From the NCBI GenBank assembly GCA_937870675.1, contig CALMZN010000019.1, positions 1-42,045 of the forward strand: a stretch of 42,045 bases of DNA, read 5' to 3'. The position numbers and the translations under genes were made by a program. Shown one piece after another: positions 6,327-32,338 of the stretch. Position 1 is the first letter of the stretch. The number at the start of each line of letters is the position of its first letter. The notes beneath the pieces are model-generated. The model was not told where the DNA came from. It saw nothing but the letters and a program-made list of their open reading frames with translations, and made no database searches. The stretch is from an uncultured bacterium (GTDB lineage: Bacteria; Patescibacteriota; Patescibacteriia; UBA1558; GWA2-36-10).

Positions 6327-6327
6327 T

Positions 6328-6723
6328 ATGGAAAATATAAAAACACACTCAAAAGCAATCCGTTTGTTTTACTTCTGGGTCGGCATTGTCGCCACTTTTG
6401 CTTATCGTGTTATTATTGTGCTGAATTTTTACAGTAATACTTGGGTAAAAATATCATGGTATGTTGGCACTATTGGTTTTATAGTTTATTATATTCATCG
6501 TTTTGATATATCAAAAAAGCGTTCGCGTGTTATTATAGAGCATGGATTGCGTGAAAAGTTGGATCATCCCGAAAAATTAGACGAAGCTGATCATCAAGCT
6601 TTGGCTTATATTTTGGACACCTTGGTATCTTCCAAAGAAAAATGGAATAATTATTTTATTTTTATTCTGTCTGGCTTGGTATTGGTTGTTGGCGTGTTGC
6701 TGGACTTTGTTTTTAAGAAATAA
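6328..6723 (+). CDS. hypothetical membrane protein
   Basis: MENIKTHSKAIRLFYFWVGIV... with about 3 TM helices. ATG 6328 directly follows the stop of the previous gene. The listed ORF begins at 6298. Confidence 0.55.
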   Translation: MENIKTHSKAIRLFYFWVGIVATFAYRVIIVLNFYSNTWVKISWYVGTIGFIVYYIHRFDISKKRSRVIIEHGLREKLDHPEKLDEADHQALAYILDTLVSSKEKWNNYFIFILSGLVLVVGVLLDFVFKK

Positions 6724-8504: not shown

Positions 8505-9074
8505 ATGGTGATCAATGAGGATAAGTTTGAAAAAAGCGATATAGAGCTGGTTAGGATGACCTTGTTTGATCAAGAGAATTTTTTGTATTTGGTTCAACGT
8601 TATGAAAAAAAATTACTGCGTTTTATCCAGAGAATTTCTGGCCTGAGCTCGGACGATGCACAGGATTTGTTGCAGGAAGTGTTTATCAAGGTTTATCAAA
8701 ATTTAAATGACTTTGATCAGAGTTTGAAATTTTCTTCTTGGCTGTATCGTATTACTCATAACCAAGTAATTAGCAATTATCGCAAGAATAAGAGTCGGCC
8801 ACAGTTGTCATTGTTTGATCTGGACTGGGAGTCCTGTGAACAGCTGGCCAGTGATTTTGATATCAATCAAAGTTTAGACCAAGGCATTCTGAAAGAAAAA
8901 ATGTCTCGAGCTTTGGATAGTTTGGACTTGAAATATAAAGAAGTGATTATTTTAAAATATTTAGAAGATAGAAGCTATGAAGAAATATCAGATATTATCA
9001 AAAAACCAGTGAGTACAGTCGGCACTTTGTTGCGTCGAGCCAAAAAATCTTTGCAAAAAGAATTTAAAAAATAA
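8505..9074 (+). CDS. ECF-type RNA polymerase sigma-70 family factor
   Basis: Region 2 (FSSWLYRITHNQVISNYRK) and region 4 (RSYEEISDIIKKPVSTVGTLLRRAKKSL) are present. Confidence 0.85.
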   Translation: MVINEDKFEKSDIELVRMTLFDQENFLYLVQRYEKKLLRFIQRISGLSSDDAQDLLQEVFIKVYQNLNDFDQSLKFSSWLYRITHNQVISNYRKNKSRPQLSLFDLDWESCEQLASDFDINQSLDQGILKEKMSRALDSLDLKYKEVIILKYLEDRSYEEISDIIKKPVSTVGTLLRRAKKSLQKEFKK

Positions 9075-9078
9075 ATAT

Positions 9079-9786
9079 ATGGAAAATTCCGGTCAAGAAA
9101 TTTTAGATAAAATCAAAGAGCAAAATATTCAGCCCAAAAAGCGCTGGGAATTTTTATTTAAAAATTATTTGTTGTGGCTAGCTTTTGGGCTGGCGATATT
9201 CTTTGGTGGCCTAGCATCATCGGCGACTATTTTTATTTTTCAGCATGCCACTTGGGTGGAGATGGCGCCTGGTTTCAGCCCCCTGAAGAGATTGTGGGTT
9301 AATTTGCCATTATTCTGGTTGTTGAGTTTGTCATTGTTTTGCTTTTTGGCTTGGTATGATTTCAAGAATACCAAACGTGGCTATAAATATCATCCGCTAG
9401 TCATAGTATTATTTAGCATTGTTTTGAGCATGCTCTTGGGTGTGGCCATGTATTCGCTCGGTTTGGGTCAGAAGCTAGAAGAGGCATTTTTTAGGCGCGT
9501 ACCGCTTTACAAACAAATGTTTCGTCAAGGTGGGCGTATGTTAGTAGAGCCCGACAAAGGACACTTGGCTGGCATTATCACCAATGTAGATTCTAGCGCT
9601 ATTACGGTTGAAGATTTTCTTGGCAGGTCATGGATCATCAGTACTAGTACTGATGAATTCCAGATTGGTCAAAGAGTGATGCTGATTGGCCAGATGTCAG
9701 ACGACGATCATTTTATCTGTGAAAATATCAAGCCCTGGGTCCAAAGAGTTGGGCCACCTCCACCACCAATGTTTTTTCAGCCATAA
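9079..9786 (+). CDS. multi-pass membrane protein, candidate cognate anti-sigma factor
   Basis: 235 aa, starting 4 nt after the sigma gene stop. Has 4 predicted TM helices and a C-terminal soluble part ending PPPPPMFFQP. Confidence 0.45.
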   Translation: MENSGQEILDKIKEQNIQPKKRWEFLFKNYLLWLAFGLAIFFGGLASSATIFIFQHATWVEMAPGFSPLKRLWVNLPLFWLLSLSLFCFLAWYDFKNTKRGYKYHPLVIVLFSIVLSMLLGVAMYSLGLGQKLEEAFFRRVPLYKQMFRQGGRMLVEPDKGHLAGIITNVDSSAITVEDFLGRSWIISTSTDEFQIGQRVMLIGQMSDDDHFICENIKPWVQRVGPPPPPMFFQP

Positions 9787-9791
9787 TTTGA

Positions 9792-9825
9792 TTTTGAAAT
9801 AATTTCTGACCGGCCAGCGTATTAA
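9792..9825 (+). promoter_or_regulatory. second copy of the motif TTTTGAAATAA-N15-CGTATTAA
   Basis: ttttgaaataa at 9792-9802 and cgtattaa at 9818-9825, with spacing identical to the 8466-8499 copy. It lies upstream of the secreted-protein gene at 9880. Confidence 0.5.
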
Positions 9826-9879
9826 TTAATGCAAGAGGAGTTAGGCCGATTCCCACTTAATAATTAACAAAAATAATTT

Positions 9880-10308
9880 ATGGAGAAAAAACAATATTTA
9901 TTAGTAGCCTTTTTGGGTCTATTGGTGACCACGGCTGTGGTAGCTTCTACCAGCTTTGCTTTTGGTGGCAGGAGTGACGACGCTGTCAAAATCAACGATG
10001 ATCGTCAGCAAGTTCAGCAAGCCATCACCAATAACGACTATAGTGCTTGGCAGACAGCCATGACAGCACGGGTAGCTGAAATGCGTCAGCAAACCACTGA
10101 CCTAGAAGCCAAAATCAATCAGGATACTTTCAACAAAGTGTCCCAAGCCCATCAATTGATGCAGGATGGCAAGGTAGATGAGGCCAAAGCAATTTTTGAG
10201 GAACTAGGTATGTTTGGCCCAATGGGCAATGGTCATATGGGTGGCCGTGGTCTGGGTATGAGGGGGCAGGGTTTAGGTGTCGCCAATACTCAAAATCAAG
10301 TTCAATAA
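9880..10308 (+). CDS. secreted hypothetical protein with Gly/Met-rich tail
   Basis: Signal peptide LLVAFLGLLVTTAVVASTSFA and C-terminal GMFGPMGNGHMGGRGLGMRGQGLG. Preceded by the ECF-like promoter motif at 9792-9825. Confidence 0.6.
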   Translation: MEKKQYLLVAFLGLLVTTAVVASTSFAFGGRSDDAVKINDDRQQVQQAITNNDYSAWQTAMTARVAEMRQQTTDLEAKINQDTFNKVSQAHQLMQDGKVDEAKAIFEELGMFGPMGNGHMGGRGLGMRGQGLGVANTQNQVQ

Positions 10309-10334
10309 TTTTTTCATTGTTCATCTTAAAAAAT

Positions 10335-10361
10335 CGCCTCCGCTTTGCGGGGGTGGTTTTT
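10335..10361 (+). terminator. rho-independent terminator fused to a TGTTATACT box
   Basis: cgcctccgc ttt gcgggggtg, then gtttttattt and tgttatact at 10365-10373. Confidence 0.7.
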
Positions 10362-10397
10362 ATTTGTTATACTAAAAATATTATTAACCATAAAAAT

Positions 10398-10712
10398 ATG
10401 AGTAAAAAAAGTATTTGGCATTATGCTTTGGCCGAGGTATTGGTGGCTGTTTTGTATGTATTCTTAGTTGGTTTATTTTTCCGTAATGCCGAGAAAATAT
10501 TTGGACCAGAGGATACTATGTTGAGCCCAGTGGCCTTCTTATTATTATTGGTTTTTTCGGTATCCATAATGGGCATGACTATCTTTGGTCGTTCGATTAT
10601 GTGGTACCTAGACGGTCAAAAAAAAGAAGCAGTAAAACTTTTGTTCTATAAATTATTTTATTTATTTGTTGCTACATTTTTAGCTATGTTTAGTTTAGCA
10701 ATGAGCAGATAA
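10398..10712 (+). CDS. small membrane protein
   Basis: MSKKSIWHYALAEVLVAVLYVF... with 3 TM helices. The listed ORF start at 10317 would run through the terminator hairpin at 10335-10355, so ATG 10398 is preferred. Confidence 0.55.
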   Translation: MSKKSIWHYALAEVLVAVLYVFLVGLFFRNAEKIFGPEDTMLSPVAFLLLLVFSVSIMGMTIFGRSIMWYLDGQKKEAVKLLFYKLFYLFVATFLAMFSLAMSR

Positions 10713-12714: not shown

Positions 12715-13245
12715 ATGATGTCATTAAAAAGAAATAGTCGATTTTTTTCCATATTAATTTTTTTGTTGGGCTTGATATTGGCCATTGTTTATTTGCGGGC
12801 TCCTATCAGTAGGGAGTTTATTGTTGATATCGGTCGATCAGGTTTGTTTGGCGCAATGCTTGTTGGCGCGCTGTATAGTTTTGCTTTTACTTCAAGTATT
12901 GCTACGGTGATTTTTTCCACGGCTCCATACAATGTCCATCCATTGATAGTCGCTTTTTTTGGTGGCTTGGGAGCAGCCATGTATGACTTGATTATTTTTA
13001 CTTTTGTTCGAGCCAAAACAGGCAGTGATTTTTTTGAGGCATTAAAAACAAAAATGCACAAGCGTCAAAAATTTGCTTCGGTATTTTTGTCTTTTGTTGG
13101 TGTGGTTATTTTGGCCTCCCCGCTACCCGATGAGTTAGCGGCAGGAATTCTAGGATTTTCCAAATTGTCAGTTAAAAATTTTGTCTTTATATCTTTTTTG
13201 GCAAATATCACAGGCATTTTTATGATTTTACTTATTAGTAACTAA
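12715..13245 (+). CDS. hypothetical integral membrane protein
   Basis: 176 aa with 5-6 hydrophobic helices. No recognised family. Confidence 0.55.
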   Translation: MMSLKRNSRFFSILIFLLGLILAIVYLRAPISREFIVDIGRSGLFGAMLVGALYSFAFTSSIATVIFSTAPYNVHPLIVAFFGGLGAAMYDLIIFTFVRAKTGSDFFEALKTKMHKRQKFASVFLSFVGVVILASPLPDELAAGILGFSKLSVKNFVFISFLANITGIFMILLISN

Positions 13246-13259
13246 TTTTTATAAATAAT

Positions 13260-13769
13260 ATGAAAAGTTTGAAAACAATTATTATTTTTTTGGTAGTATT
13301 TTTTGTGTTGGGTGCTTTATTCCTTTATTTTGATCGCGATTTGAGAAGCGTTAAGGGAGAGCTAGCCAGCTTAAAACAAAAAATGCAAGAAGCGCAAAAA
13401 GATAAGATTGATGCGCATGGTTGTATATTAAGCGATGGTTATACTTGGTGTGATTTGACGGCCAAATGCTTCAAAGCCAGTGAGGAAAAATGCGAATTGA
13501 GCATTGAGGAGGCGATCAAGGATATATTGGTCGAGAAATATAAAAAAGATCCAAGTGAGGTTATAGTAGCGGTTTCCCAAAGCGATGATACTCACGCTGT
13601 GGGGGCGGTCGGTATCGGCACTGGAGACCAGATTGAGGGGGGAATGTTTATAGCCATCAAGCAAGACGATGCTTGGGGGTTGTTATATGATGGCAATGGC
13701 GCGGCTGATTGTCTAGAATTGGAAATGATGGGCTTCCCCAGCAATATGCTAACTAATTTTTGCGATTAA
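13260..13769 (+). CDS. hypothetical membrane-anchored/secreted protein
   Basis: 169 aa with an N-terminal TM helix, several Cys residues, and a terminator at 13784-13813. Confidence 0.55.
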   Translation: MKSLKTIIIFLVVFFVLGALFLYFDRDLRSVKGELASLKQKMQEAQKDKIDAHGCILSDGYTWCDLTAKCFKASEEKCELSIEEAIKDILVEKYKKDPSEVIVAVSQSDDTHAVGAVGIGTGDQIEGGMFIAIKQDDAWGLLYDGNGAADCLELEMMGFPSNMLTNFCD

Positions 13770-15180: not shown

Positions 15181-15969
15181 TTATAATCTATTAAAATAAT
15201 TAGTAGCCGCTAATTTTGTTTTGAAGTGCAAGGCATCCTTGATGTTTAGATTTTTGGCGCCTTGCATTTTGAGCTGGTAGGCCAAAGTATTGCGTAAAAT
15301 CTGTGGCGTCACTTTGAGGCGTGGACGCAAAACATAAGCATATTTTTCAATGAGGCGTTCTACAGAGCGGACTGACAAATGGGTATCGCCGGCTTTTTTA
15401 CTGCGGTCAAAGTTGATAAATAAATAAGGATTTTTGTCACGGCGAAAATTTAAGTATTTTTCCAAGTAGTGCAGAGCGTAAGGTGGCAAGCTTAAATGTT
15501 TATTTTTAATAATAATCTCACGGCTCAAAAAATCCACTTGTTCTTTTTTTATATTGACCAAATCACTGACCTTCAAACCGCTGACATACAGTATTTCCAG
15601 CAAGGCCTTGTCACGGAAGCCCAATAAATTTTTTTTCTTCAAGGGTTGATCCAAAAAATTTTGTAGCTGTACTGGATCCATGGCTTTTAATCTATTTTTT
15701 TCTTGGGAAAGCAAGATAAAGGAATATTTTATATTCAAAAAATTTAAGTAGTTGTTGAGAATGACGAAGCGCAGATTGATACTGCCAATATTTTTTTGCT
15801 GGCTTAGTAAAAAATGGTTATATTTTTTTAAAATGTGGGTGGTGATTTTTTTGTCTTCGGTCCATAGCAAAAAATGTCGTATATGCCACAAGTAATTTTT
15901 GATAGTGCTTGGTTTTAAGTCGCGACTTTTTAAATATAGTCGATATTTGTTTAGAGAGGTTTTGTCCAT
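15181..15969 (-). CDS. tyrosine recombinase, XerC/XerD-like (short, 262 aa)
   Basis: N-terminal SAM-like core-binding domain (TIKNYLWHIRHFLLW). The catalytic region has FRDKALLEILYVSGLKVSDL (Arg), TPQILRNTLAYQL (the xxLR box with Gln in place of the usual His) and LHFKTKLAATNYF (His..Tyr). Confidence 0.8.
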   Translation of the reverse strand: MDKTSLNKYRLYLKSRDLKPSTIKNYLWHIRHFLLWTEDKKITTHILKKYNHFLLSQQKNIGSINLRFVILNNYLNFLNIKYSFILLSQEKNRLKAMDPVQLQNFLDQPLKKKNLLGFRDKALLEILYVSGLKVSDLVNIKKEQVDFLSREIIIKNKHLSLPPYALHYLEKYLNFRRDKNPYLFINFDRSKKAGDTHLSVRSVERLIEKYAYVLRPRLKVTPQILRNTLAYQLKMQGAKNLNIKDALHFKTKLAATNYFNRL

Positions 15970-16630: not shown

Positions 16631-16765
16631 CTTGTGTAAAAAATAATTAAGGTAAAATGAAGCTAGCCGAAGGTTGGTTGGCAGATTATAGTCACGCTTT
16701 GTTTAGCTTGCCTGCAATTTGTCACATCAACTAGTACTAGCCATTTTGCCAGGAAAGTTAATTTT

Positions 16766-18970
16766 ATGGCTAGTAAACAATTTACTACCGAAATAGCTGG
16801 CCGCAAACTCTTAGTAGAGATCGGTAAGCTAGCAAAACAAGCCCAAGGGTCTTGTACTGTTTCTTATGGAGAAACAGTAGTTTTGGCTACGGCTGTTATG
16901 TCACGACAAGCGCGCGAAGGAGTGGATTATTTTCCTTTGCTAGTTGATTATGAAGAACGTTTGTATGCCGCTGGCAAAATAAAGGGCTCGCGTTTTATAA
17001 AAAGAGAAGGTCGGGCAACTGACGAGGCCATTTTGACCTCGCGTTTGATTGATCGCTCTATCAGACCATTGTTCAAGGAAACCGAACGCACTGATGTGCA
17101 GGTGGTTTTGACGGTCTTATCTTATGATGGCATCAATGATCCAGAATTTCCTAGCTTGATTGCCGCCTCGGTTGCTTTGGGCATTTCACCCATACCTTGG
17201 AGCGGCCCGGTCGCTGCTATAAAGATCGGTCGCATCAATGATGAGTTGGTTATCAACCCCACAGTTGAAGCTCGACAAAAAAGCGACTTAGATTTGTTTG
17301 TGGTGGGCACCATCGATGAAGTGGTAATGATTGAATCCGGCGCCAAGCAAGTCAAAGAAGAAGTCATGATTGAAGCTGTTGAATTTGCCGGAAAACACAT
17401 TAGAAAGCTGATACCTTTTATTGAAGATATTATCAAAGAAGTTGGAGTAGCCAAACATGAAGTAGCTATTGATGAAGAAAAACTGGCTCTGCAAAAATTG
17501 ATCCAAGAAAAAGTAGGTAATTTTTTCCAAGGCAGAGATTTGGGTTCTTGTTTTCAGGCTGACAAATCAAAAACCAAGCAAATGATCGAAGAGGTCAAAG
17601 CCGAATTAGATCAGGTCTTAAAGGATGATAACGAAGTTTCCAAAGATGCTCGCGCTATTGGCTTGAGTATGTTTGACGCTAGCTTAGAGAAAGCATTCAT
17701 AGCTTTGGTTTTAGAAAAAAAGCAAAGACCTGATGGCCGCAAAATGGACGAGATCAGGCCATTGTCAGCCGAAGTAGCTATTTTGCCTCGTACGCATGGC
17801 AGCGGCTTGTTTAGCCGCGGTGAAACGCAAGTATTATCAATTGTCACTTTGGGCGCTCCGGGTGATGAGCAGACCTTAGACAGCATGGAAGAATCCGGCG
17901 CCAAAAAATACATGCACCATTATAATTTTCCCGGCTTTTCTGTTGGCGAGGTCAAACCCCTGAGGGGCCCAGGCCGTCGAGAAATCGGTCATGGCGCTTT
18001 GGCTGAAAAAGCTCTGTTGCCAGTCCTGCCCAAGGATGAAGATTTCCCCTATACCATCAGAGTGGTGTCAGAAGTCCTGGAATCAAATGGCTCTTCGTCT
18101 CAGGCCTCAATTTGTGGCTCCACGCTTTCTTTGATGGACGCGGGAGTGCCAATTTCTGCTCCGGTGGCTGGTATTGCCATGGGCTTGGTGCTTGATGAAA
18201 AGGATAAAAATCGCTATGAAATATTGACCGACATCCAAGGCATAGAAGATCACTCCGGACACATGGATTTCAAAGTAGCTGGCACTGAAAACGGCATCAC
18301 CGCTCTACAACTGGATATCAAACTAGGCGGTATTAGCTACAAAATAGTCAAAGAGACCTTGGCTCGGGCTCGTGAAGCCAGAATGAAAATTTTGGAAGTC
18401 ATGAAAAAAGTAATTGCCACGCCAAGACCCGAGTTATCACAATATGCTCCGCGAATTATTACTTTACAGATCAATCCAGACAAGATTAGGGACGTCATTG
18501 GCACTGGCGGTAAAATAATTAATGAAATTATTGCCAAATGCAATGTGCAAATTGATATTGAGCAGAGCGGTTTGGTCTTGATCACCTCCACTGACCAAGA
18601 TGGCGCGCAAAAAGCCAAAGAGTGGGTGGAAAATATTGTCCGAGACATTGTGATTGGTGAGATTTATGATGGCCAAGTCATTCAAATCATCAAAGACAGA
18701 AATAGCGGTAGTGAGATTGGCGCTATTGTCGAACTATTACCCGGTAAAGATGGTATGGTGCACATTTCCCAGATTGCTTACAACCGCATTGAAAAGGTCA
18801 GTGATGTTTTGAAAGTTGGCGACCAAGTCAAAGTCAAAGTGGTTGACGTTGACACAGCCAACAACAAGATTAGCTTGTCTATCAAGGACTTACTCCCTAG
18901 ACCAGAGGGCTATGTGGATCGGCCAGTATTTAAAAAACCATTTCCTAAAAAACCATTTTTTAAAAAATAA
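16766..18970 (+). CDS. pnp: polyribonucleotide nucleotidyltransferase (PNPase)
   Basis: 734 aa with two RNase PH domains, KH (IGTGGKIINEI) and S1 (GEIYDGQVIQI...GMVHISQIA) domains, in the conserved rpsO-pnp synteny. Confidence 0.95.
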   Translation: MASKQFTTEIAGRKLLVEIGKLAKQAQGSCTVSYGETVVLATAVMSRQAREGVDYFPLLVDYEERLYAAGKIKGSRFIKREGRATDEAILTSRLIDRSIRPLFKETERTDVQVVLTVLSYDGINDPEFPSLIAASVALGISPIPWSGPVAAIKIGRINDELVINPTVEARQKSDLDLFVVGTIDEVVMIESGAKQVKEEVMIEAVEFAGKHIRKLIPFIEDIIKEVGVAKHEVAIDEEKLALQKLIQEKVGNFFQGRDLGSCFQADKSKTKQMIEEVKAELDQVLKDDNEVSKDARAIGLSMFDASLEKAFIALVLEKKQRPDGRKMDEIRPLSAEVAILPRTHGSGLFSRGETQVLSIVTLGAPGDEQTLDSMEESGAKKYMHHYNFPGFSVGEVKPLRGPGRREIGHGALAEKALLPVLPKDEDFPYTIRVVSEVLESNGSSSQASICGSTLSLMDAGVPISAPVAGIAMGLVLDEKDKNRYEILTDIQGIEDHSGHMDFKVAGTENGITALQLDIKLGGISYKIVKETLARAREARMKILEVMKKVIATPRPELSQYAPRIITLQINPDKIRDVIGTGGKIINEIIAKCNVQIDIEQSGLVLITSTDQDGAQKAKEWVENIVRDIVIGEIYDGQVIQIIKDRNSGSEIGAIVELLPGKDGMVHISQIAYNRIEKVSDVLKVGDQVKVKVVDVDTANNKISLSIKDLLPRPEGYVDRPVFKKPFPKKPFFKK

Positions 18971-18972
18971 AA

Positions 18973-20334
18973 GTGGTCACTGAAAAAGAGCCAACCCAAA
19001 GATTTACTTTATTGCCAAGTAAAGCTTGGTGGCTTTTTTTGGGTGTTTTTATTTTAGGAATAGCGGCTATGCTCTTGATGCCCCAAAAATCCAGCCAGCC
19101 ACTACTCATGTATTTGCCCCAAAATACTACTTTTTATTATCACTGGTCTGATCTAGCCACTTACAAAAGCTTGGATATTAACAAATTGGCTATTATAGAC
19201 ACTACCGAGCCGACAGACAAGATAGACGAACTAAAAAGTTTGTTATTGGATGGCATATTTTCCACCAAAGAAGTTGTGTGGTTTAAAACTGATGCTTTGA
19301 GTGATGATAATTTTATACTGCGCTTGGATAATGCCCAGCAGGTGACCAAATGGCTGACAGTCAATCGCCCAGAGTATAATTATTTATTAATTGACAAGGA
19401 TATTTTGTTGATCAGCGCTGACTCGTGGCTATCCAGCCACTACAGTGAACAGCCAAGAATGGAAGTGGTTAACAATAATATGTCTTTGGGTATTAATATT
19501 TTTTGGTCCAAAAATAATACGCCCGAGTTTTTGTCGGCTCTGACTGAGTGGTTGAAACTAGACACTGGTTTGCCAAATATTTACGCCAATATCTACCAAC
19601 AAAAAGACGGACAATCAAACATCCATATTTGGCAGGTGAAATTAAGACAAGTAATCAATGCTAGTAGCACTGACGCTTGGTCAAATAAAGCTAATTTTCC
19701 GCTAGGTGCTGATTTGATTCTTGGTTTTGGTGAACACGCTCCGGACAAATGGCAAGTCATAGTCAGTCAGAGTATTTTACAGCCCTTGTTTAGTGAGTGG
19801 CCATATTATCGGCTGTCAGCCAAAAAAATAGAGGAGCAGATACTCAAAAATAATTATATTTATCTGGCCAATGACAAGTGGCTGATGGTTTCTAAGGAGG
19901 ATTGGCAGTCCAGGATAAATGATTGGGTGCCAAATCTTAATTTGCAAGAAACCAAAAATCGTTTACCGGATGGCACGGTTTACACCGAGTATATTAGTGG
20001 CCAAGAAGCAGTCATAGAAAAATTAAGCTACCAAGCCAAGGATTATTGGCATTTTAGCGGTCTCTATGGAGCGCAAATTGGCCCTAGTTACTATTTATCA
20101 AATAGCGAGTCAATTATTCAGGCCACTTTGGTCAGTAAGTATGATATGCAGAGTTATTTAGGTCAGTGCCAGTTAGCAGGGGATTATCAAATTATTGATT
20201 TGGTGCAGGTAAATAGTGCTAAAATCAAAGATGAAACAATTAAAAAAGCGCTATTAGATCAAAAAATAAATAATTTAACAGTATTTTCTTACGAAAATAA
20301 TCAACAAATTGGTTTTAAGGCCTGTTTTCGTTAG
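18973..20334 (+). CDS. hypothetical membrane-anchored protein
   Basis: 453-aa ORF with a GTG start listed and one N-terminal TM helix (WWLFLGVFILGIAAMLL). No recognised domain. Confidence 0.55.
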   Translation: MVTEKEPTQRFTLLPSKAWWLFLGVFILGIAAMLLMPQKSSQPLLMYLPQNTTFYYHWSDLATYKSLDINKLAIIDTTEPTDKIDELKSLLLDGIFSTKEVVWFKTDALSDDNFILRLDNAQQVTKWLTVNRPEYNYLLIDKDILLISADSWLSSHYSEQPRMEVVNNNMSLGINIFWSKNNTPEFLSALTEWLKLDTGLPNIYANIYQQKDGQSNIHIWQVKLRQVINASSTDAWSNKANFPLGADLILGFGEHAPDKWQVIVSQSILQPLFSEWPYYRLSAKKIEEQILKNNYIYLANDKWLMVSKEDWQSRINDWVPNLNLQETKNRLPDGTVYTEYISGQEAVIEKLSYQAKDYWHFSGLYGAQIGPSYYLSNSESIIQATLVSKYDMQSYLGQCQLAGDYQIIDLVQVNSAKIKDETIKKALLDQKINNLTVFSYENNQQIGFKACFR

Positions 20335-20364
20335 GAATAATTCTATAAAATTTAAAGTAAAAAA

Positions 20365-20521
20365 CCCACTGACTTTCTATGCCGTCATTCCCGCGAAAGC
20401 GGGAATCCACACTAATGTTATGAAATCATAGTGTCGTGTGGATCATCGGATCACCCGCCCACCATGACCGCCGGTCAGGCGTGTCGGGCGGGAGTCCGAT
20501 GATGACGGGAGAGTGTCAGTG
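20365..20521. repeat. GC-rich nested palindromic element forming a perfect four-way junction inside a terminator-like stem
   Basis: The outer stem ccactgac/gtcagtgg is flanked by an A6 run and a T6 run. The second stem is ccgtcat/atgacgg. Three abutting hairpins fill it: 20388-20403 (tcccgc GAAA gcggga), 20404-20442 (atccacac..gtgtggat) and 20443-20500 (catcgga..cccgccc..gggcggg..tccgatg). Confidence 0.75.
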
Positions 20522-20590
20522 GTTTTTTAAATCATCTTCTACACAGGCCTAGAACTTAAAAAATAGCCATAAATAGGCACTTTTGTGCTT

Positions 20591-20627
20591 GCACCGTAAA
20601 ACAGGTCGCGGAGCGACGTTTTACGGT
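20591..20627. repeat. long GC-containing hairpin (11 bp + 5 bp)
   Basis: caccgtaaaac ag gtcgc gga gcgac gttttacggtg. The core gcggagcgac is shared with the element at 22517-22526. Confidence 0.75.
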
Positions 20628-20655
20628 GTGGATAACTTGTTGATAGTTGTGGATT
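20626..20655. promoter_or_regulatory. two direct DnaA-box-like 9-mers
   Basis: TGTGGATAA at 20626-20634 is a perfect reverse complement of TTATCCACA. TGTGGATTA at 20647-20655 has one mismatch. Confidence 0.35.
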
Positions 20656-20724
20656 ATTTTGATAAAGTTGTCAATAATCAGAAAAATAGCTAATTATTTT
20701 TGCTAATTTTAGCAAAGTATTAGC

Positions 20725-20753
20725 TTTGACACAAAGGTAAAAATATGATATAC
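20725..20753 (+). promoter_or_regulatory. consensus sigma-70 promoter with extended -10, no ORF behind it for about 470 nt
   Basis: TTGACA (20725-20730), a 17-nt spacer, then TGATATACT (-10 TATACT at 20748-20753). Confidence 0.6.
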
Positions 20754-20759
20754 TTATAT

Positions 20760-21150
20760 TGTTGATAAATAAGTACCTTAAAACAATACTTTAGAACTGT
20801 ACATTACTTGTGATAAAGTAGTGTCTAGCTCTAAGAGCTTCACTGTTTTGATTTATCAAGCCACCGACGCTTGAAAAAGCAAAAACAAAAACAAAATACA
20901 AAAAGGAGAATCCTGTTGTCGGATAGGCAACGAGATATTTCCACTAAATGGTGGAGTTCTACAATGATTCTGAGTCGGAATGAATCACAATGACGTTTTC
21001 ACAACAACATATGCTAAAGTTTCAAGCCAATTGAACTTACAGACGCAATAAAAATGCGTCACAAGCTATCGTGAAGACGCTACGGGGCGCACTTACGGCC
21101 CACGAAGCTAACGCTATTAGGGGTGCTCGGATGCGTCCTGTTTGTTTTGT
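20760..21150 (+). ncRNA. candidate structured noncoding transcript or long leader of the DksA-like gene
   Basis: Lies downstream of the consensus promoter. Contains the closing stem ttgataaat (20761-20769)/atttatcaa (20850-20858), an inner hairpin agctc taa gagct, a CA-rich tract, the hairpin gacgca..tgcgtc (21041-21059), and a gacgc..gcgtc stem followed by ctgtttgttttgtc. No ORF of 60 aa or more on this strand. Confidence 0.3.
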
Positions 21151-21228
21151 CAAAATTTTCAATACCCCTAAATTCTTGCCAAATTGCCCGATATTTGCTA
21201 TCATTCTTTGGTAATTAAAACCCAAGCC

Positions 21229-21591
21229 ATGACAGTTGACACTAAATTTTTGGAAAATAGAAAAAGCGAATTAGAAAAAAGGCGCGATGAAATACTGCGT
21301 GAATTAAACGTGGACACCATCCAGGTGGCGGACAATGATTATAGCGCCAAATTTATTGATTATGGCGACAAAGAAGATGAAAATGCGGCTGAAGTAGCTG
21401 ACTTTGAGAAAAATTTGTCTTTAGAAAAAACCTTGGAAATTTCCCTGTACAATGTAAATAAGGCCTTAAAGAAAATAGATGAGGGCAATTATGGTTTGTG
21501 TGAAGTTTGCGCCAAGCCCATTGATCCCAAGCGCTTGGAGGCCTTTCCTTCAGCCACTGCTTGTATGAATTGCAAGAAAAAATCTTTATAA
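21229..21591 (+). CDS. DksA/TraR-family C4 zinc-finger protein
   Basis: MTVDTKFLENRKSELEKRRDEIL coiled coil, then CEVCAKPIDPKRLEAFPSATACMNCKKK. ATG 21229 is preferred over the listed 21184. Confidence 0.78.
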   Translation: MTVDTKFLENRKSELEKRRDEILRELNVDTIQVADNDYSAKFIDYGDKEDENAAEVADFEKNLSLEKTLEISLYNVNKALKKIDEGNYGLCEVCAKPIDPKRLEAFPSATACMNCKKKSL

Positions 21592-21595
21592 AATT

Positions 21596-22012
21596 ATGTG
21601 TAAATACTATTTAGGATGTTTGAGCTTAATAATCCTGGATAGATTCTTAAAAATATTTTTTGTAAAAACACTGTCTGAAGGTGGCAGTGTTTTTGCTTTG
21701 TATATCAATAAAAACATCGCTTTTTCCTTGCCCCTGCCCAGCGTAATATTATATCCGATTCTAGTTATTATATTTTTTTTGTTAGTTTGGTTTTGGCTGA
21801 AGGACTGGCAGGGAGCCAAAAAATATATTTGGCCCTATGCTTTGGTAATAATTGGCGCGGCTAGCAATATCTGGGATCGCCTCTGGTATGGCGGAGTAGT
21901 GGACTACTTTAATGTGCCATATTTTACTGTGCTAAATTTAAGTGATGTTTATATTTTCTTGGGAGTGTGCTATTTTTTAGTAAGACAATTAAAAAAACAA
22001 AAATATGACTAA
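21596..22012 (+). CDS. lspA: lipoprotein signal peptidase (signal peptidase II)
   Basis: GAASNIWDRLWYGGVVDYFNV matches the N..DR...G.VVD motifs of LspA. About 4 TM helices. Confidence 0.8.
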   Translation: MCKYYLGCLSLIILDRFLKIFFVKTLSEGGSVFALYINKNIAFSLPLPSVILYPILVIIFFLLVWFWLKDWQGAKKYIWPYALVIIGAASNIWDRLWYGGVVDYFNVPYFTVLNLSDVYIFLGVCYFLVRQLKKQKYD

Positions 22013-22481
22013 CAAAAGTATTGTTAAATTATTTAGTTCAGTGCTTATTTGCTTGGGTGCCGGGTTTATTGGCTCATTTTTTACTACTCCGCAGATTGCG
22101 GGTTGGTATCAGACGCTTAACAAGCCCACTTGGAACCCGCCGTCTTGGCTTTTTGGACCAGTGTGGACTACGCTTTTCATCCTGATGGGCATTGCTTTGT
22201 ATCTGGTCTGGCAAAAAGCTAGCCACTCCAAAAGCGCTCGCCAGGCCACGATATTTTTCTTAGTACACTTGCTGTTTAATATATTTTGGTCAGTATTATT
22301 TTTTGGGCTACACAATCCTTTTTATGCTTTTTTAGAAATCATTGTTTTGTGGCTCATGATTTTGACCTTGATTATTTGGTTTTTCAAGCTTGATAAAAAA
22401 GCTGGCAGTTTGCTAGTCCCTTATCTGCTGTGGGTCAGCTTTGCCGGCTATTTGAACTATACAATTTGGCAGTTGAATTAA
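22005..22481 (+). CDS. tspO: TspO/MBR tryptophan-rich sensory protein
   Basis: WYQTLNKPTWNPPSWLFGPVWTTLFILMG and PYLLWVSFAGYLNYTIW, with five TM helices. Confidence 0.87.
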   Translation: MTNKSIVKLFSSVLICLGAGFIGSFFTTPQIAGWYQTLNKPTWNPPSWLFGPVWTTLFILMGIALYLVWQKASHSKSARQATIFFLVHLLFNIFWSVLFFGLHNPFYAFLEIIVLWLMILTLIIWFFKLDKKAGSLLVPYLLWVSFAGYLNYTIWQLN

Positions 22482-22501
22482 AAAATCGCTATTTTTTTGT
22501 T

Positions 22502-22603
22502 GTCATTCTGGAAGGAGCGGAGCGACTGATAGAATCTACGTCAATTTAAAGGAGTGGATTCTATCGCTTCGTCGCGTCAGACGCGACGAAGCGATAGAAT
22601 GAC
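22502..22603. repeat. GC-rich palindromic element (19-bp perfect hairpin plus an extra arm copy)
   Basis: attctatcgcttcgtcgcg tcaga cgcgacgaagcgatagaat spans 22558-22600. The upstream partial arm gatagaatc is at 22528-22536. The outer pairing is gtcattct (22502-22509) with agaatgac (22596-22603). Confidence 0.75.
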
Positions 22604-22690
22604 CTTGCTGAAGCGGTTTTTTTGTCCCCTTGACTTCCCTTTCAGAGTCGGAGTAAAATGCACTCAAGAAAAAGAAAAGCGATTTTTATT

Positions 22691-24253
22691 ATGGCTAACA
22701 TTTATACAGTTGCTGTTTTGGGTCTCAAAGGCAACCTAGTAGAAGTAGAGACCAATTTGTCTAGGCACTTGCCCAAGGTTATTATTGTTGGTTTGCCTGA
22801 TACAGCCGTGCAAGAGGCCAGAGAAAGGGTCTGGGCCGCTATTGAAAATAGCGGTTTTGTGTTTCCCCGACAAAAAGTCGTGATCAATCTAGCGCCAGCC
22901 CAAGTTCAAAAAAGCGGTGGAGCTTATGACCTATCTATGGCTATTAGTGTCTTACAAGCGAGTGGAGAGTTAAAATTAATTTCTGAACCAACCGCTTTTA
23001 TTGGCGAGCTGTCTTTGACTGGTCTAGTCAAAGCCGTGCCCGGAGTCATGGTCATGGTGGCGGCTTTGAAAGAATTTGGTTTCCAAAATATATTTGTACC
23101 CCAAAAAAATGTCAAAGAAGCCAGCGTGATTGAGGGTGTCAATATTTACGCCATCAATAATCTAGCCCAACTAATACGACATTTGAATGGCCAGCAAAAA
23201 ATTGAACCCCAAGCGCCAGTAGTTTTTTATAATGAGCCCAGCCAAGCAACCTTTGATTTTCAAGAAGTCCATGGTCAGGCACAAGCCAAGCGGGCCTTGG
23301 AAATAGCGGCTGTTGGCGGACACAACATTTTGCTGGTCGGGCCTCCGGGGTCTGGCAAGACCATGCTCGCCAAAAGTTTTTTGTCTATCTTGCCGCCACT
23401 ATCACTGGACGAGGCCTTGGCCGTCAGCAAGATACACAGCTTGGCTGGACTTTTGACTGAAGAAAATCATCTAGTGCGTAGTAGATTTTTGCGTAGTCCG
23501 CATCACTCGGCTTCAGTGTCAGCCATTGTCGGTGGTGGCACTTACCCCAAACCCGGAGAAATATCTTTGGCTCATCGCAATGTTTTATTTTTGGATGAAA
23601 TTTTGGAATTTCCTCGAGCAGTACTGGAGGCCTTGCGCCAACCCTTGGAAGACAAAATAATCACTGTCTCGCGCATCAAGGGTTCGGTTGATTATCCGGC
23701 TGATTTTATTTTTTTGGCCACGGCCAATCCTTGCCCTTGTGGCTACCTGACTGACCCCAGTCACGAGTGCCACTGCACGCCAATGGAAATATCCAAATAC
23801 AGGAAAAAATTATCAGGACCATTACTTGATCGCATTGATTTGCACTTGAATGTGGCTAGAGTAAAAAGCCATGAGTTGATAAGTAATCCTTCAACTGGAT
23901 TTGACTACGCTCACCACCAGTCACTCGCGGTCGGAAAAAATTCAGCCGAAAGCTCCAAAGAAATTTTGGCGCGCGTGATTTCCGCTAGACAACGACAAGC
24001 AGATCGTCAGCCAGATAATTTATTAAACAGCGACCTGCCACCAAAGTTGATAAAAAAATATTGTGTTTTGTCATCTAGCAATCAGCGACTGCTACTGACG
24101 GCCACTGAGAAAATGCAATTATCAGCCAGAGCTTATTACAAGATTTTGAAAGTAGCTCGAACTATTGCGGATCTAGCAAGTAGTCAAAATATTGAAGAAG
24201 AGTATATTTTGGAAGCCCTGCAGTATCGTAATAAAATATGGTCGGAGCTGTAA
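22691..24253 (+). CDS. comM: Mg-chelatase-like AAA+ protein YifB/ComM
   Basis: N-terminal Lon-protease-like domain (MANIYTVAVLGLKG..), Walker A GPPGSGKT, LFLDEILEF, and a C-terminal ChlI-type domain. The listed start at 22658 lies in the promoter region. Confidence 0.9.
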   Translation: MANIYTVAVLGLKGNLVEVETNLSRHLPKVIIVGLPDTAVQEARERVWAAIENSGFVFPRQKVVINLAPAQVQKSGGAYDLSMAISVLQASGELKLISEPTAFIGELSLTGLVKAVPGVMVMVAALKEFGFQNIFVPQKNVKEASVIEGVNIYAINNLAQLIRHLNGQQKIEPQAPVVFYNEPSQATFDFQEVHGQAQAKRALEIAAVGGHNILLVGPPGSGKTMLAKSFLSILPPLSLDEALAVSKIHSLAGLLTEENHLVRSRFLRSPHHSASVSAIVGGGTYPKPGEISLAHRNVLFLDEILEFPRAVLEALRQPLEDKIITVSRIKGSVDYPADFIFLATANPCPCGYLTDPSHECHCTPMEISKYRKKLSGPLLDRIDLHLNVARVKSHELISNPSTGFDYAHHQSLAVGKNSAESSKEILARVISARQRQADRQPDNLLNSDLPPKLIKKYCVLSSSNQRLLLTATEKMQLSARAYYKILKVARTIADLASSQNIEEEYILEALQYRNKIWSEL

Positions 24254-28478: not shown

Positions 28479-28507
28479 TTGACAAAATATGGTAAATATG
28501 ATATACT
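28479..28507 (+). promoter_or_regulatory. consensus sigma-70 promoter with extended -10 driving the GC-rich gene
   Basis: TTGACA (28479-28484), a 17-nt spacer, then TGATATACT (TATACT at 28502-28507). The last 14 nt, aaatatgatatact, are identical to the promoter at 20740-20753. Confidence 0.6.
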
Positions 28508-28572
28508 ACTTTGTTAATCATCGCTTAGTTTTCCTCAAGAAAGCCCTTTACGGGGCAGAAGGAGTGTGTGTG

Positions 28573-29085
28573 ATGAAGTTGTTCTTTGCCATTCTTTTCA
28601 CTCTGGTTCTGATCGCCACCGGCATCTGGAACATCGATCGCTGGTACAGTTTCAACCACGACATCGGCAACTATCTGAAGCTGGCCGGTGACGCTCCCTC
28701 AGTGGAACGCGCCGACGAGTTTCTCGGCAAGGCCCTCTCCAATATCGAAGCTCGAGGTCTGACGCAGGGCAATTCAGCCTACTTCTTCCACAATCCCAAC
28801 GCCGATCTGTCGATCTGGCATTCGCAGATCGTTGGCGCCAAACAGACCATGGCGTCCATCATCGAGCGAGCCAATGCTGATCCGGCGTCTGTGACGCAGC
28901 TCGAGCGGGACAATGCTCTGATGAAGATCAGAGAGGTTCTGCTCGACGAGGGTGACAGCGGTACCAAGGTCACGGAGCCCACCCACATCACGGTGTTTCC
29001 GAATCAGTGGGCGTTTTTGCTCTTGTATGTCGTGTCTATCATGCTCGGTTTCATCTTCTGGACATGGTGGAAGAACGAGCGCTAG
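28573..29085 (+). CDS. hypothetical bitopic membrane protein encoded by a compositionally foreign (GC-rich) gene
   Basis: Strong SD GAAGGAG lies 8 nt upstream of ATG 28573. MKLFFAILFTLVLIATGIW... has N- and C-terminal TM helices. Third codon positions are mostly G/C (ctg, atc, ggc, gac, gcc), unlike every neighbouring gene. Confidence 0.65.
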   Translation: MKLFFAILFTLVLIATGIWNIDRWYSFNHDIGNYLKLAGDAPSVERADEFLGKALSNIEARGLTQGNSAYFFHNPNADLSIWHSQIVGAKQTMASIIERANADPASVTQLERDNALMKIREVLLDEGDSGTKVTEPTHITVFPNQWAFLLLYVVSIMLGFIFWTWWKNER

Positions 29086-29238: not shown

Positions 29239-29348
29239 AGGGATGAGAATTTAGAAATGAGGATGGTTTAGATCCTCAAGACTCACCTTGGAAAATATAA
29301 TAGCACAAATCTTTTCAAAAGTGAATAATCTTTTTTGTTGTGGATAAA

Positions 29349-29921
29349 TTATTTTATGATTTTATCAATCAAACCATAGGTTTTGGCTTCTTCGGGATTC
29401 ATGTAGTAGTCGCGATCAGTGTCAACTTCTATTTTTTTCAAGGGCTGTCCAGTATGCTTGTGCAGTATCTGATTGAGGCGATCTTTGAGCTTCAAAATCT
29501 GCTCGGCTTTTATTTTGATGTCCGATGCTTGGCCTTGGGCGCCGCCCATGACCTGATGCAAGAGAATTTCAGCGTTGGGCAAAGCAAATCTCTGCCCCTT
29601 GGTGCCAGCCGATAGCAACAAGGCGCCCATAGAAGCCGCTAAGCCGACGGCAATAGTGGAGACCGAGCTTTTGACGTGTTGCATAGTGTCATATATGGCC
29701 AAGCCATCGGTCACTGAGCCACCTGGTGAGTTGATATACATTTTGATGGGTCGATTATTGTCTTGGGCATCCAAAAAAAGCAGTTGGGCAATGACTAAAT
29801 TGGCGATGTGGTCATCAATCGCGTCACCCAAAAAAATTATTCGGTCTTTGAGTAGGCGAGAGTAGATGTCATAAGCTCTTTCGCCACCTTGGCTTTTTTC
29901 TATTACTGTAGGTATAAGCAT
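29349..29921 (-). CDS. clpP: ATP-dependent Clp protease proteolytic subunit
   Basis: [34 protein letters not shown] (active-site Ser) and the MGALLLSAG...LLHQ block are present. Confidence 0.95.
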
Positions 29922-30986: not shown

Positions 30987-31110
30987 AACAAAATATTATA
31001 GCGGAAGTTTGCTATGGAGTCAATGCTATAAAAACCACCTCTTAGTGAAGTGGTTTCTGATGGAGTTTTATGTAAATGTTGGTTATAAATTGATTTTCAA
31101 ATATAATGAA

Positions 31111-31581
31111 TTATTTGGCATGTTTAATTTCATTAACTTTATTAACGACGTTCTTTAGTGGCAACATTCTTTTCCTCACAAATTTTTCAATATATATAAT
31201 AACCTCATCTTTTGCCTCTGGTGGACTTTGCGCTACCCAAACTGCAAAATTATACAATTCTGTGTCATCAGCAAATATCCATTTTTCATTCAAATATAAA
31301 AAAACTAATAAAGTAGTCATGGCTACTCTTTTATTACCATTTTGAAATGGGTGATTTTTTATCAACAAATAAAAAAGAACAGCCGCTTTTCCAATGAGAC
31401 CCTTGTAAAGAATTTTTCCATCGTATTTTAGGAATGGCATTGCCACGCAACTTTCTAAAATATTTGGCGTCCGTGTTTCAAATGGCGGGATTGGTTGATC
31501 CCATCTTAATGTATTTCTAGCCAAACTGTGGGCTACATTTTGTATAATCTGAATATTAATATTTCTAATTTGTTTTGACAT
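31111..31581 (-). CDS. doc: Fic/Doc-family toxin (death-on-curing type)
   Basis: The KNHPFQNGNKRVAMTTLLVFL motif (HxFx[D/N]GNKR) is present. 156 aa, starting 3 nt after a small HTH gene. Confidence 0.8.
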   Translation of the reverse strand: MSKQIRNINIQIIQNVAHSLARNTLRWDQPIPPFETRTPNILESCVAMPFLKYDGKILYKGLIGKAAVLFYLLIKNHPFQNGNKRVAMTTLLVFLYLNEKWIFADDTELYNFAVWVAQSPPEAKDEVIIYIEKFVRKRMLPLKNVVNKVNEIKHAK

Positions 31582-31584
31582 AAA

Positions 31585-31854
31585 TTATTCTTTACCTAAT
31601 TTTTGCAAAACACTACCATAATCATTAATAACCCTTACAACAGCCGTATCTATTTCTTTTTTGATTTTATCTGACAACTCTCCCAAAAAATAACTTTCTA
31701 TATTCTCATAAGGAATAATATAATTACGGCCAATTTTTTTTGCTTTAATTTGACCTTTTTTTATTCTATTAAAAATAGTTATTCTGCTGACTCCCAACAA
31801 ATCAGCGAATTCTTGTGTGGTGTAATATTTTTTAATTGTTATAGGGGTTTCCAT
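31585..31854 (-). CDS. HTH (excisionase/MerR-like, HTH_17) DNA-binding protein, putative antitoxin
   Basis: YYTTQEFADLLGVSRITIFNRIKKGQIKAKKIGRNYIIP. 89 aa, immediately upstream of doc, with a palindromic operator upstream. Confidence 0.7.
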   Translation of the reverse strand: METPITIKKYYTTQEFADLLGVSRITIFNRIKKGQIKAKKIGRNYIIPYENIESYFLGELSDKIKKEIDTAVVRVINDYGSVLQKLGKE

Positions 31855-31877
31855 ATTTTTTGTTAATATCTATAATA

Positions 31878-31897
31878 ATATTAACATATGTTAATAT
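31878..31897. promoter_or_regulatory. 20-bp perfect palindrome, candidate operator of the HTH-doc operon
   Basis: ATATTAAC ATAT GTTAATAT, plus an extra half-site GTTAATAT at 31862-31869. It lies between the minus-strand -10 (TATAAT, 31931-31926) and the start codon at 31854. Confidence 0.55.
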
Positions 31898-31968
31898 GAT
31901 TGTCAACACTTAACACAATATGTATATTATACCTAATATTAGCTTAAAAAATAAGTTTATTTCAAACC

Positions 31969-31999
31969 AAAAAACACTCAAGTTTCCTCGAGTGTTTTT
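31969..31999. terminator. bidirectional rho-independent terminator after rbfA
   Basis: aacactc (31973-31979) pairs with gagtgtt (31990-31996). It is flanked by an A-run and a T-run. Confidence 0.7.
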
Positions 32000-32338
32000 T
32001 TATCGAGTTGAGCTCGATTTCAACGCCTCATCAATGCGTCCGTATTTTATATCACGCTCATCAAGTTCAAAATTCAAATGAGGTGTTCCTCGCATGGTCA
32101 AGTTGCGACCGATTTCTTTTTGAATATGGCCAGCAAATTTTTTGATGGCCGTCAGTCCTGAGCCCAAATGATTTTGGGGGATGACACTGACATAAGCTGT
32201 AGCATTTTTGAGATCAGGTGAAATAGTGACTTCCGTGACAGAGATCAGCGTGCCCAGAGGTGGCTCAAAGTCCCGCAAAATTATGTTATTAATTTCTTGG
32301 CGCAAATATTCTCCTACTTGGGCTGGGCGTTTACTCAT
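32000..32338 (-). CDS. rbfA: ribosome-binding factor A
   Basis: RPAQVGEYLRQEINNIILRDF....ISVTEVTISPDLKNATAYVSV. The start at 32338 overlaps the infB stop (ATGAGTAA). The listed ORF extends to 32371. Confidence 0.87.
   Translation of the reverse strand: MSKRPAQVGEYLRQEINNIILRDFEPPLGTLISVTEVTISPDLKNATAYVSVIPQNHLGSGLTAIKKFAGHIQKEIGRNLTMRGTPHLNFELDERDIKYGRIDEALKSSSTR

Follow-up and report, generated by a model that had tools for sequence, protein, structure and literature searches.

A conserved structured RNA gene preceded by a DnaA-box motif in an intergenic gap of a Patescibacteria contig

Results and discussion

An RNA gene in an 894-nt gap

The 42,045-nt contig CALMZN010000019.1 from an uncultured bacterium of the Patescibacteriota, analysed here over its full length (the window), contains an 894-nt gap between two genes at positions 20335-21228. 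The best overall explanation of this gap is a stand-alone gene for a conserved, pseudoknotted non-coding RNA (ncRNA), which acts in trans and the synthesis of which is coupled to DnaA; we put the probability of this explanation at roughly 0.62. That a real, independent structured RNA gene is present is very likely, and the trans-acting, DnaA-coupled part is an evenly balanced matter. The RNA seems to represent a new family among the large structured RNAs, found in Patescibacteria.

The gap had been singled out in an original prediction, made from the letters of the sequence, as free of open reading frames (ORFs) of 60 aa or more on the transcribed strand. This was borne out, the longest + strand ORFs being 47 and 40 aa. 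The gap is also the longest spacer within the window; however, of the other spacers only about half, and not most as had been stated, are shorter than 150 nt. It is flanked on one side by a gene for a 453-aa membrane-anchored protein, the family of which was not recognised, and on the other by a gene that had been called DksA/TraR-like, an assignment confirmed by Pfam. The gap is composed of an unrelated palindromic insertion, a hairpin of variable sequence and a conserved block (20626-21153). Within this block a promoter region with a perfect DnaA box is followed by the stand-alone RNA gene, which in turn is followed by a separate promoter for dksA. Both the insertion, a repeat that takes up approximately 170 nt of the gap, and the conserved DnaA box ahead of the promoter had been overlooked originally. 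The RNA gene, its signals and its downstream neighbour are as follows:

20726-20754, + strand: promoter of the RNA, TTGACA-17-TATACT with an extended -10 TG; score 11/12
About 20761-21150, + strand: RNA gene of approximately 390 nt; ends predicted, homologues approximately 360-457 nt, single copy in the window
21083-21150, + strand: predicted intrinsic terminator and 3' end, comprising the terminal helix Hi (GGGCGCA 21085-21091 with UGCGUCC 21132-21138) and then a U-run (21139-21150)
21176-21204, + strand: the dksA-like gene's own promoter, TTGCCA-17-TATCAT with TG; separate from the RNA gene
21229-21591, + strand: DksA/TraR-type zinc-finger gene (Pfam PF01258, E 2.5e-8); neighbour of the RNA in most lineages, not in all

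Homologues in related genomes

Relatives were gathered by means of the 453-aa protein (two close genomes) and PNPase (80 loci). With the gap sequence as query, nhmmer matched 31 distinct loci of Parcubacteria/Komeilibacteria-type metagenome-assembled genomes (MAGs), in which PNPase identity was 69-97%. Nearly all of these matches sit between a homologue of the 453-aa gene and dksA. Further members were found by running a DNA pattern of the A-rich strand (described below) on the genome collection, and with a sequence profile and a core covariance model (R1). These searches added locus L130, locus L095 (on another contig of the MAG behind L019), locus L120 (from a Komeilibacteria genome of 52% GC, with the synteny retained) and the much more distant loci L107, L163, L089, L160, L084 and L033. 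The RNA is thus present in about 40 other Parcubacteria/Komeilibacteria-type genome loci (species-level genomes), once per locus. Among the three closest genomes the RNA is 97.5% identical, as against 89-92% for the flanking coding DNA. A phage origin was also considered, and was rejected when the A-rich-strand pattern yielded only low-complexity A-runs on viral contigs.

Secondary structure and kissing loop

The 31 sequences were aligned with MAFFT, without structure information. RNAalifold predicted 61 pairs on this alignment, 51 of them with double compensatory changes. A model of 67 pairs was paired in 95.1% of its cells, against 38-45% when the 3' partners were slid by 1-3 columns, and its covariation score was 0.603, against 0.11-0.15 for the slid partners. 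Double changes occurred at 56 of the 67 pairs. The covariation check on aligned relatives that the original prediction had proposed thus showed compensatory pairing beyond the controls, as is expected of a structured ncRNA. Enforcing the comparative helices on the window sequence gave a fold energy of -111.7 kcal/mol, compared with an unconstrained minimum free energy of -113.0 kcal/mol, a cost of approximately 1 kcal/mol. The elements of the fold are:

20791-20808 with 20817-20834, + strand: helix Ha, in the form of an irregular hairpin; double changes at 11 of 16 pairs, 97% paired
20835-20848 with 20946-20959, + strand: long-range helix Hb; double changes at 11 of 14 pairs, 96% paired
20856-20861 with 20869-20874, + strand: hairpin Hc with loop CCGAC (20864-20868); all 6 of 6 pairs covary, 99.5% paired
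20875-20904, + strand: conserved single-stranded A-rich linker between Hc and Hd, almost invariant AAAACAAAAAYAAAAAUAUAAAAA
20905-20920 with 20926-20942, + strand: helix Hd; its tip is 60-100 nt longer in some relatives
20965-20970 with 20982-20987, + strand: hairpin He with loop GUCGG (20974-20978), which pairs with the Hc loop
20994-21079, + strand: 3' domain, in which helix Hf encloses a conserved CCAAUU/ACUUAC segment and hairpin Hh
20994-21002 with 21071-21079, + strand: long-range helix Hf; 10 pairs, all with double changes
21042-21047 with 21055-21060, + strand: hairpin Hh; stem sequences vary by lineage, pairing kept

Helix Hb closes a junction that encloses Hc, the A-rich strand of approximately 25 nt and Hd. 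The Hc loop (family consensus CUGAC) is complementary to the He loop (GUCAG), which would give a kissing helix of 5 bp. This helix was absent from every model and folding prediction used. It is 100% paired in the 31 sequences, with double-sided changes at four of the five positions, and the distant homologues, which lay outside model building, preserve the complementarity with different sequences. The variants of the kissing pair (Hc loop with He loop) are:

Window clade: CCGAC with GUCGG
Six sequences: UUGAC with GUCAA
One sequence: CUUAC with GUAAG
One sequence: CUAAC with GUUAG
One sequence: UUGAU with AUCAA
L107, L163 and L089: CCCGGC with GUCGGG
L084: CCCAA with UUGGG
L033: CUCAC with GUGAG
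L160: CCCGAU with AUCGGG

These variants are good evidence for a predicted tertiary pseudoknot of 5-6 bp that would lock Hc, inside the Hb junction, to He, outside it.

Some of the elements listed in the original prediction recur in this fold, namely the CA/A-rich tract, which is the A-rich linker, and the gacgca/tgcgtc hairpin, which is Hh. Others do not. The proposed closing stem ttgataaat/atttatcaa is a perfect 9-bp match in the window, but has no counterpart in the 31 homologues (duplex folding against shuffles, mean z +0.26). The agctc-taa-gagct hairpin is confined to the window's own clade and competes with the conserved Ha and Hb. For the gacgc...gcgtc stem at 21077, the conserved partner of UGCGUCC (21132-21138) is GGGCGCA (21085-21091) instead, and the supposedly competing stem ttaggggt/acccctaa has its 3' arm outside the RNA and is absent from L001 and L002, the two closest relatives. 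Judged by comparison of the sequences, several of the listed stems are chance features of this genome.

Promoter, terminator and expression

The near-consensus promoter predicted originally was found one base away from the position given for it, and the motif TTGAC...TATGATATAMT is retained with the same spacing in essentially all homologues. A terminal hairpin with a U-run, also predicted, is present in the sequence as well. In the conserved 3'-end helix AAGGCGCA pairs with UGCGCCUU, with U's after it; helix Hi comprises 7-9 pairs and shows compensatory variants, e.g. GGCACA/UGUGCC.

The position of these signals bears on whether the RNA could be a long cis-acting leader, a riboswitch or attenuator that governs the dksA-like gene by regulated termination; a leader of approximately 470 nt had been among the options of the original prediction. 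In the main clade, L120 and L084 the RNA does lie directly 5' of dksA in the same orientation (in L084 with rnj upstream and dksA-lspA downstream), and the 3' strand UGCGCC has two possible G-rich partners further upstream, an arrangement reminiscent of alternative pairing. However, the relatives have a conserved dksA promoter, TTGATT-17-TGCTAnnAT, between the two, immediately 3' of the RNA terminator. In L001 and L002 an insertion of approximately 250 nt, rich in hairpin repeats, separates the terminator from that promoter (L001 7135-7392; L002 7134-7375), with the RNA still 97.5% identical; the same joint was also seen in DNA run X2. Moreover, the downstream gene differs in distant homologues. 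It encodes a DHH-family protein in L163, L107 and L089, it is arsR in L160, where a tRNA and transporter genes also adjoin the RNA, and it is rnhB in L033, where the order is pnp, cmk, RNA, rnhB. No known riboswitch aptamer family in Rfam matched the window or the homologues, and the metatranscriptome contig described next stops short of dksA. We regard a leader function as very unlikely.

In a wetland metatranscriptome (X4, 88 Mb of contigs) a contig of 233 nt, with a depth of 12.8, was 100% identical to 20854-21086. It did not extend into dksA; its ends are assembly ends, not RNA ends. X4 yielded no further contig from this genome within 16700-23000 (6.3 kb), and the few other matches in this region were less than 90% identical and derived from the PNPase of other organisms. 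Carry-over of DNA would also have covered the flanks. The metatranscriptome check that had been suggested thus gave a contig inside the RNA and none from its flanks, and the RNA gene combines conserved promoter and terminator signals of its own with a sign of transcription that is confined to the RNA.

Further evidence concerned the strand. The fold of the + strand was much more stable than that of shuffled sequences (z -5.45; - strand, z -2.74), in agreement with the structured noncoding sequence that had been proposed. The alignment contained 268 G·U cells and 39 A·C cells in paired positions, and the model was 95% paired on the + strand, against 84% if the - strand is taken. The excess of G·U over A·C indicates that the + strand is the RNA strand. 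These results also speak to the notion that what is conserved is a DNA element, such as binding sites or an origin, and no RNA at all. The 100 nt upstream are indeed conserved as DNA motifs, but signatures of an RNA are seen in the compensatory changes, in G·U pairs specific to one strand and in a layout that runs from promoter to terminator, and the sequence, unlike its flanks, occurs in an RNA library. A DNA element without an RNA is barely credible.

Coding potential and comparison with known RNA families

The original prediction had also raised a dual-function RNA or mRNA, based on the following ORF:

20915-20992, + strand: TTG-initiated 25-codon ORF behind AAGGAG; not conserved as coding

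The window does have a strong Shine-Dalgarno (SD)-like AAGGAG, followed 7 nt further on by the TTG and its 25-codon frame, from which a 25-residue peptide could be made. The combination of SD and ORF is found in the three closest genomes only, and in L001 a 1-nt insertion shifts the frame and AAGGAG has become AAGGAA. The ORF has 4 codons in L005, L036 and L006, and most homologues have no start codon there. The length differences between homologues are hairpin insertions of 60-100 nt, not multiples of three. Finally, helix Hd begins with two pairs formed by the GG of the SD-like motif, and the three adjacent pairs covary (e.g. UA 11, CG 9, AU 7). Translation of a peptide is highly improbable. 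A degraded pseudogene, for which the gap was not searched in translation, was likewise dropped, as covariation and indel pattern make this idea unnecessary.

The Rfam check gave no family match. Against Rfam 15 (4227 models) at the gathering score, the whole window contained only two tRNAs, and the 16-kb loci of nine relatives gave no match. At E up to 10, the RNA of the window and those of L107, L130, L089 and L163 gave only chance matches (e.g. Histone3 or FtrB, on hairpins). At this threshold there was no match to RNase P RNA (RF00010/RF00011), to the signal recognition particle (SRP) models or the domain IV motif, or to OLE, ROOL, GOLLD, raiA and HEARO, all five of which are in Rfam 15. 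ARAGORN found no tmRNA in the window or in 39 homologous loci (40 loci). Full-text literature searches retrieved no description of such an RNA; a recent preprint on intergenic features was unrelated. Of the options in the original prediction, that of a novel small RNA was therefore right in substance: this is a conserved structured RNA with its own promoter and terminator and without an Rfam match. The finding goes beyond it in that the RNA, as read from sequence comparison, is neither a leader nor a small regulatory RNA with a peptide.

An alternative is that the RNA is a very diverged universal RNA (RNase P RNA, tmRNA, SRP RNA or 6S RNA) missed by current models. Its size of 360-457 nt and its apparent abundance would suit RNase P RNA or tmRNA, and none of the universal RNAs was seen elsewhere in the sequence scanned, which is a small part of each genome. 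In addition, diverged RNase P RNAs have been reported from bacteria of the candidate phyla radiation (CPR), where they came to light at lowered score thresholds only; these are of similar size, come from the same host group and are hard for standard models, but they did score against RF00010, and RNase P features could still be recognised in them (Lui et al. 2021, PMC8172020). By contrast, the present RNA showed no match at E<=10 in the five homologues searched and none at the gathering score in the nine 16-kb loci. The RNase P-specific elements were also not recognised: no covarying or stable pairing of the P1 type was found between the 5' segment and 3' parts of the RNA, and no P4 strands (GGAAAGUCC... 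/ ACAGAA...GGCUUA) were seen among the conserved strings when the alignments were read. A tmRNA was rejected on the absence of an ARAGORN match in the 40 loci, of a conserved tag ORF and of a tRNA-like T-arm/CCA end, the 3' end being a terminator helix. A 6S RNA was rejected in view of the length of 360-457 nt, the branched fold with a kissing pseudoknot and without a bubbled rod, the unpaired ends and the lack of an Rfam match. A diverged universal RNA is quite unlikely.

DnaA boxes upstream of the promoter

Upstream of the promoter and at the predicted transcript start, the following sites were found:

20627-20635, + strand: perfect DnaA-box motif TGTGGATAA (TTATCCACA on the - strand), approximately 90 nt upstream of the -35
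20648-20656, + strand: second DnaA-box-like site TGTGGATTA, 1 mismatch; conserved in close relatives only
20668-20674, + strand: conserved motif TTGTCAA at approximately -58, from the alignment
20702-20713, + strand: conserved palindrome GCTAAnnTTAGC just 5' of the -35, in an A/T-rich UP-like region; candidate operator
20760-20768, + strand: DnaA-box-like TGTTGATAA, 1 mismatch, at the predicted transcript start

The motif TGTGGATAA is the reverse complement of TTATCCACA, the textbook DnaA box. Conserved across the family upstream of the -35 are TGTGGATAAcTTGTT at approximately -100 (closer in the distant group), TTGTCAA and the palindrome GCTAAnnTTAGC; TGTWGATAA lies over the first transcript bases in most main-clade loci. 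A search of the window for a regulon of the palindrome revealed no second convincing site, the only exact copy being that at 20702-20713. Perfect DnaA boxes occur twice in the window, the second at 29339-29347, just past the 3' end of clpP (29349-29921, - strand).

A perfect box in the same orientation was present at most 330 nt upstream of the RNA in 37 of the 41 RNA loci, so that the box TTATCCACA is conserved at the promoter. The background was 41 of 1518 windows of 350 nt from the same loci, these windows spanning the whole loci with the RNA-upstream segments included. In both L160 and L084 three perfect boxes are clustered in a stretch of approximately 70 nt, and L163, L089 and L107 have boxes on either side of the RNA gene.

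Such boxes might mean that the gene lies in or beside a DnaA-box cluster, an oriC or a DnaA-titrating site, and that its transcript or its transcription acts on initiation or on DnaA. Next to the box counts, this is favoured by a change of sign of the GC skew within approximately 1 kb in L163 (3800-5100) and L160 (1320-1400), beside the clusters of DnaA boxes, and by the precedent of CcnA of Caulobacter crescentus, a cell-cycle-linked ncRNA that is reported to act on the master regulators CtrA and GcrA (10.1101/756452). In the lineages of L163 and L160 the RNA gene may thus be near a replication origin, unlike in the window. An oriC at the site in the window was rejected, because the genes on either side run in one direction and the GC skew keeps a positive sign across the site. 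Neither the window nor the other loci examined had a dnaA gene near the RNA gene, L033 and L120 have no boxes, and skew evidence is weak in short loci. We consider such a direct action on initiation or on DnaA unlikely.

Interpretation

The preferred explanation thus remains a stand-alone, pseudoknotted ncRNA with DnaA-coupled synthesis. The folded RNA would be abundant and would act in trans, most likely within a ribonucleoprotein, as its scaffold or regulator. Surfaces for protein or tertiary contacts may be provided by the invariant A-rich strand, together with invariant sequences in loops and junctions (CCAAUU, ACUUACAAAAAG, UAACUCUUUCC). Occupancy of the boxes by DnaA would couple synthesis of the RNA to the state of replication and growth. 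A catalytic role is less likely. RNA polymerase is a candidate target, because dksA is often the neighbour. RNA turnover is a weaker candidate role, suggested by the neighbours pnp, rnj, DHH and rnhB; this link to RNA-decay genes was set aside as a weak lead, since L160 has arsR and transporter genes instead and the DHH protein is without assignment. A bolder version, in which the RNA would form a new class and belong to the core of Parcubacteria-type cells, as a ribozyme or a subunit of an unknown ribonucleoprotein, and would be wired directly to DnaA so as to connect replication with transcription (by way of DksA and RNA polymerase) or with RNA metabolism, is doubtful.

Several points weigh against this explanation. 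The DnaA box was identified solely by its match to the consensus TTATCCACA, and L033 and L120 have no box even at up to 1 mismatch. The evidence at the RNA level is one assembled contig from one small run, not reads, and the ends of the transcript are predicted. A diverged universal RNA was excluded solely on the basis of its architecture and of searches with models; the same genomes were not checked for the ordinary rnpB, ssrA, ffs and ssrS. None of 500 shuffles matched the observed covariation values, but this figure is no probability, as the sequences are akin and shuffle statistics overstate the significance. Because of this relatedness, the control with slid partners and the variety of pair types per position are the stronger evidence.

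Few bacterial RNAs combine such a size with such strong conservation of sequence and fold. The ones with a solved function (RNase P RNA, tmRNA, SRP RNA and 6S RNA) are ribozymes or cores of central machines; OLE, ROOL, GOLLD and raiA are still open problems. The present RNA resembles the latter group in being a stand-alone gene of several hundred nt with many conserved helices and tertiary or pseudoknot contacts, and in its long invariant single strands, its narrow phylogenetic range and neighbours that do not reveal the function. It differs from them in that it matches no Rfam model, has a Patescibacteria host, is not on viral contigs and has a DnaA box at its promoter. With 6S RNA and Ms1-type RNAs, which bind RNA polymerase, it shares abundance and independent transcription, and it often has a gene for a DksA-type factor as its neighbour; factors of this family are known to affect RNA polymerase. 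However, 6S RNA forms a rod of approximately 185 nt, the ends of which pair and the centre of which holds a bubble, whereas this RNA is twice as long and branched, with a kissing pseudoknot and unpaired ends. Typical features of Hfq binders are an (A-A-N)n-like A-rich strand and a terminator hairpin with a U-tail. An A-rich single strand and a terminator U-tail are both present here, which makes Hfq binding a putative property, but the RNA is far larger and more structured than Hfq-type small RNAs. CcnA, as reported, is alike in being an ncRNA tied to cell-cycle and replication circuitry; here the link is a DnaA-box motif and the RNA has a large conserved fold (10.1101/756452).

In reduced genomes, a 390-nt RNA that is preceded by a near-consensus promoter with a DnaA box, is more conserved than the neighbouring proteins and is expressed above its neighbours is likely to have an important role. 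The alignment, the fold model with its testable kissing loop and the covariance model make the RNA a new target for structure determination and for a search for partners. Patescibacteria form a large share of bacterial diversity, have genomes of approximately 1 Mb or less, have shed many standard functions and are almost uncultured. For CPR biology the RNA is a possible handle on the coupling of replication to gene expression.

Repeats and neighbouring genes

Two further elements lie in the gap, 5' of the RNA gene:

20358-20529, strand not assigned: GC-rich palindromic repeat, similar to a miniature inverted-repeat transposable element, approximately 170 nt of the gap and outside the RNA gene; three-way-junction fold
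20592-20628, + strand: perfect 11-bp hairpin 3' of the upstream gene; the place is kept, the sequence is different in each relative

The repeat has a fold z of -11.5, with arms at 20360-20378 and 20510-20528. It is missing from the corresponding site in the two closest relatives, L001 and L002, and L002 has copies elsewhere (961-1084, and 5485-5392 reversed). Its depth reached 1544x and 883x in two DNA metagenomes in which the flanks had 5-40x. The element has the look of a (miniature) mobile repeat in high copy number and is unrelated to the rest of the gap. A weak resemblance to part of Rfam FtrB was noted for its first hairpin (GUCAUUCCCGCGAAAGCGGGAAUCC). The hairpin at 20592-20628 is probably a repeat- or terminator-like element that belongs to the upstream gene; these genomes repeatedly contain GC-rich hairpins whose inner loop is of the gcggagc type (window 20592-20628; L001 7195-7245). 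A hot spot for insertion separates the 453-aa gene from the conserved block (L001 5366-6514). Here the window carries the repeat, L001 a GC-rich cassette with three small minus-strand ORFs, and L002 other DNA that includes a reversed partial copy of the repeat.

The local gene order in the window is rpsO, pnp, 453-aa gene, gap, dksA-like, lspA, tspO, comM. A tyrosine recombinase/integrase gene (15181-15969, - strand) directly adjoins rpsO. Elsewhere, the window contains two genes for sigma factors of the extracytoplasmic function type (4092-4595 and 8505-9074), one of which is followed by a gene for a DUF5667 protein. The most AT-rich kilobase (31000-32000, GC 28.8%) has a negative GC skew and a Fic/DOC-family gene (31111-31581, - strand), and may have been acquired. 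The 899-aa ORF at 39134-41833 did not match Pfam at E 0.001, and the ORFs at 1498-1896, 5847-6723, 9079-10712, 12715-13769 and 28489-29085 are without family assignment as well. A tRNA-Ile with anticodon UAU, an uncommon route for reading AUA, is present in the window (35756-35832), L089 (3653-3726) and L163 (2066-2139). Many of the related MAGs (L001/L003, L005-L007, L014, L023, L027, L029, L032 and others) have been deposited as 'uncultured Gammaproteobacteria'; their genes and nearest relatives are those of Patescibacteria/Parcubacteria, and the labels are probably an artefact of the submission pipeline.

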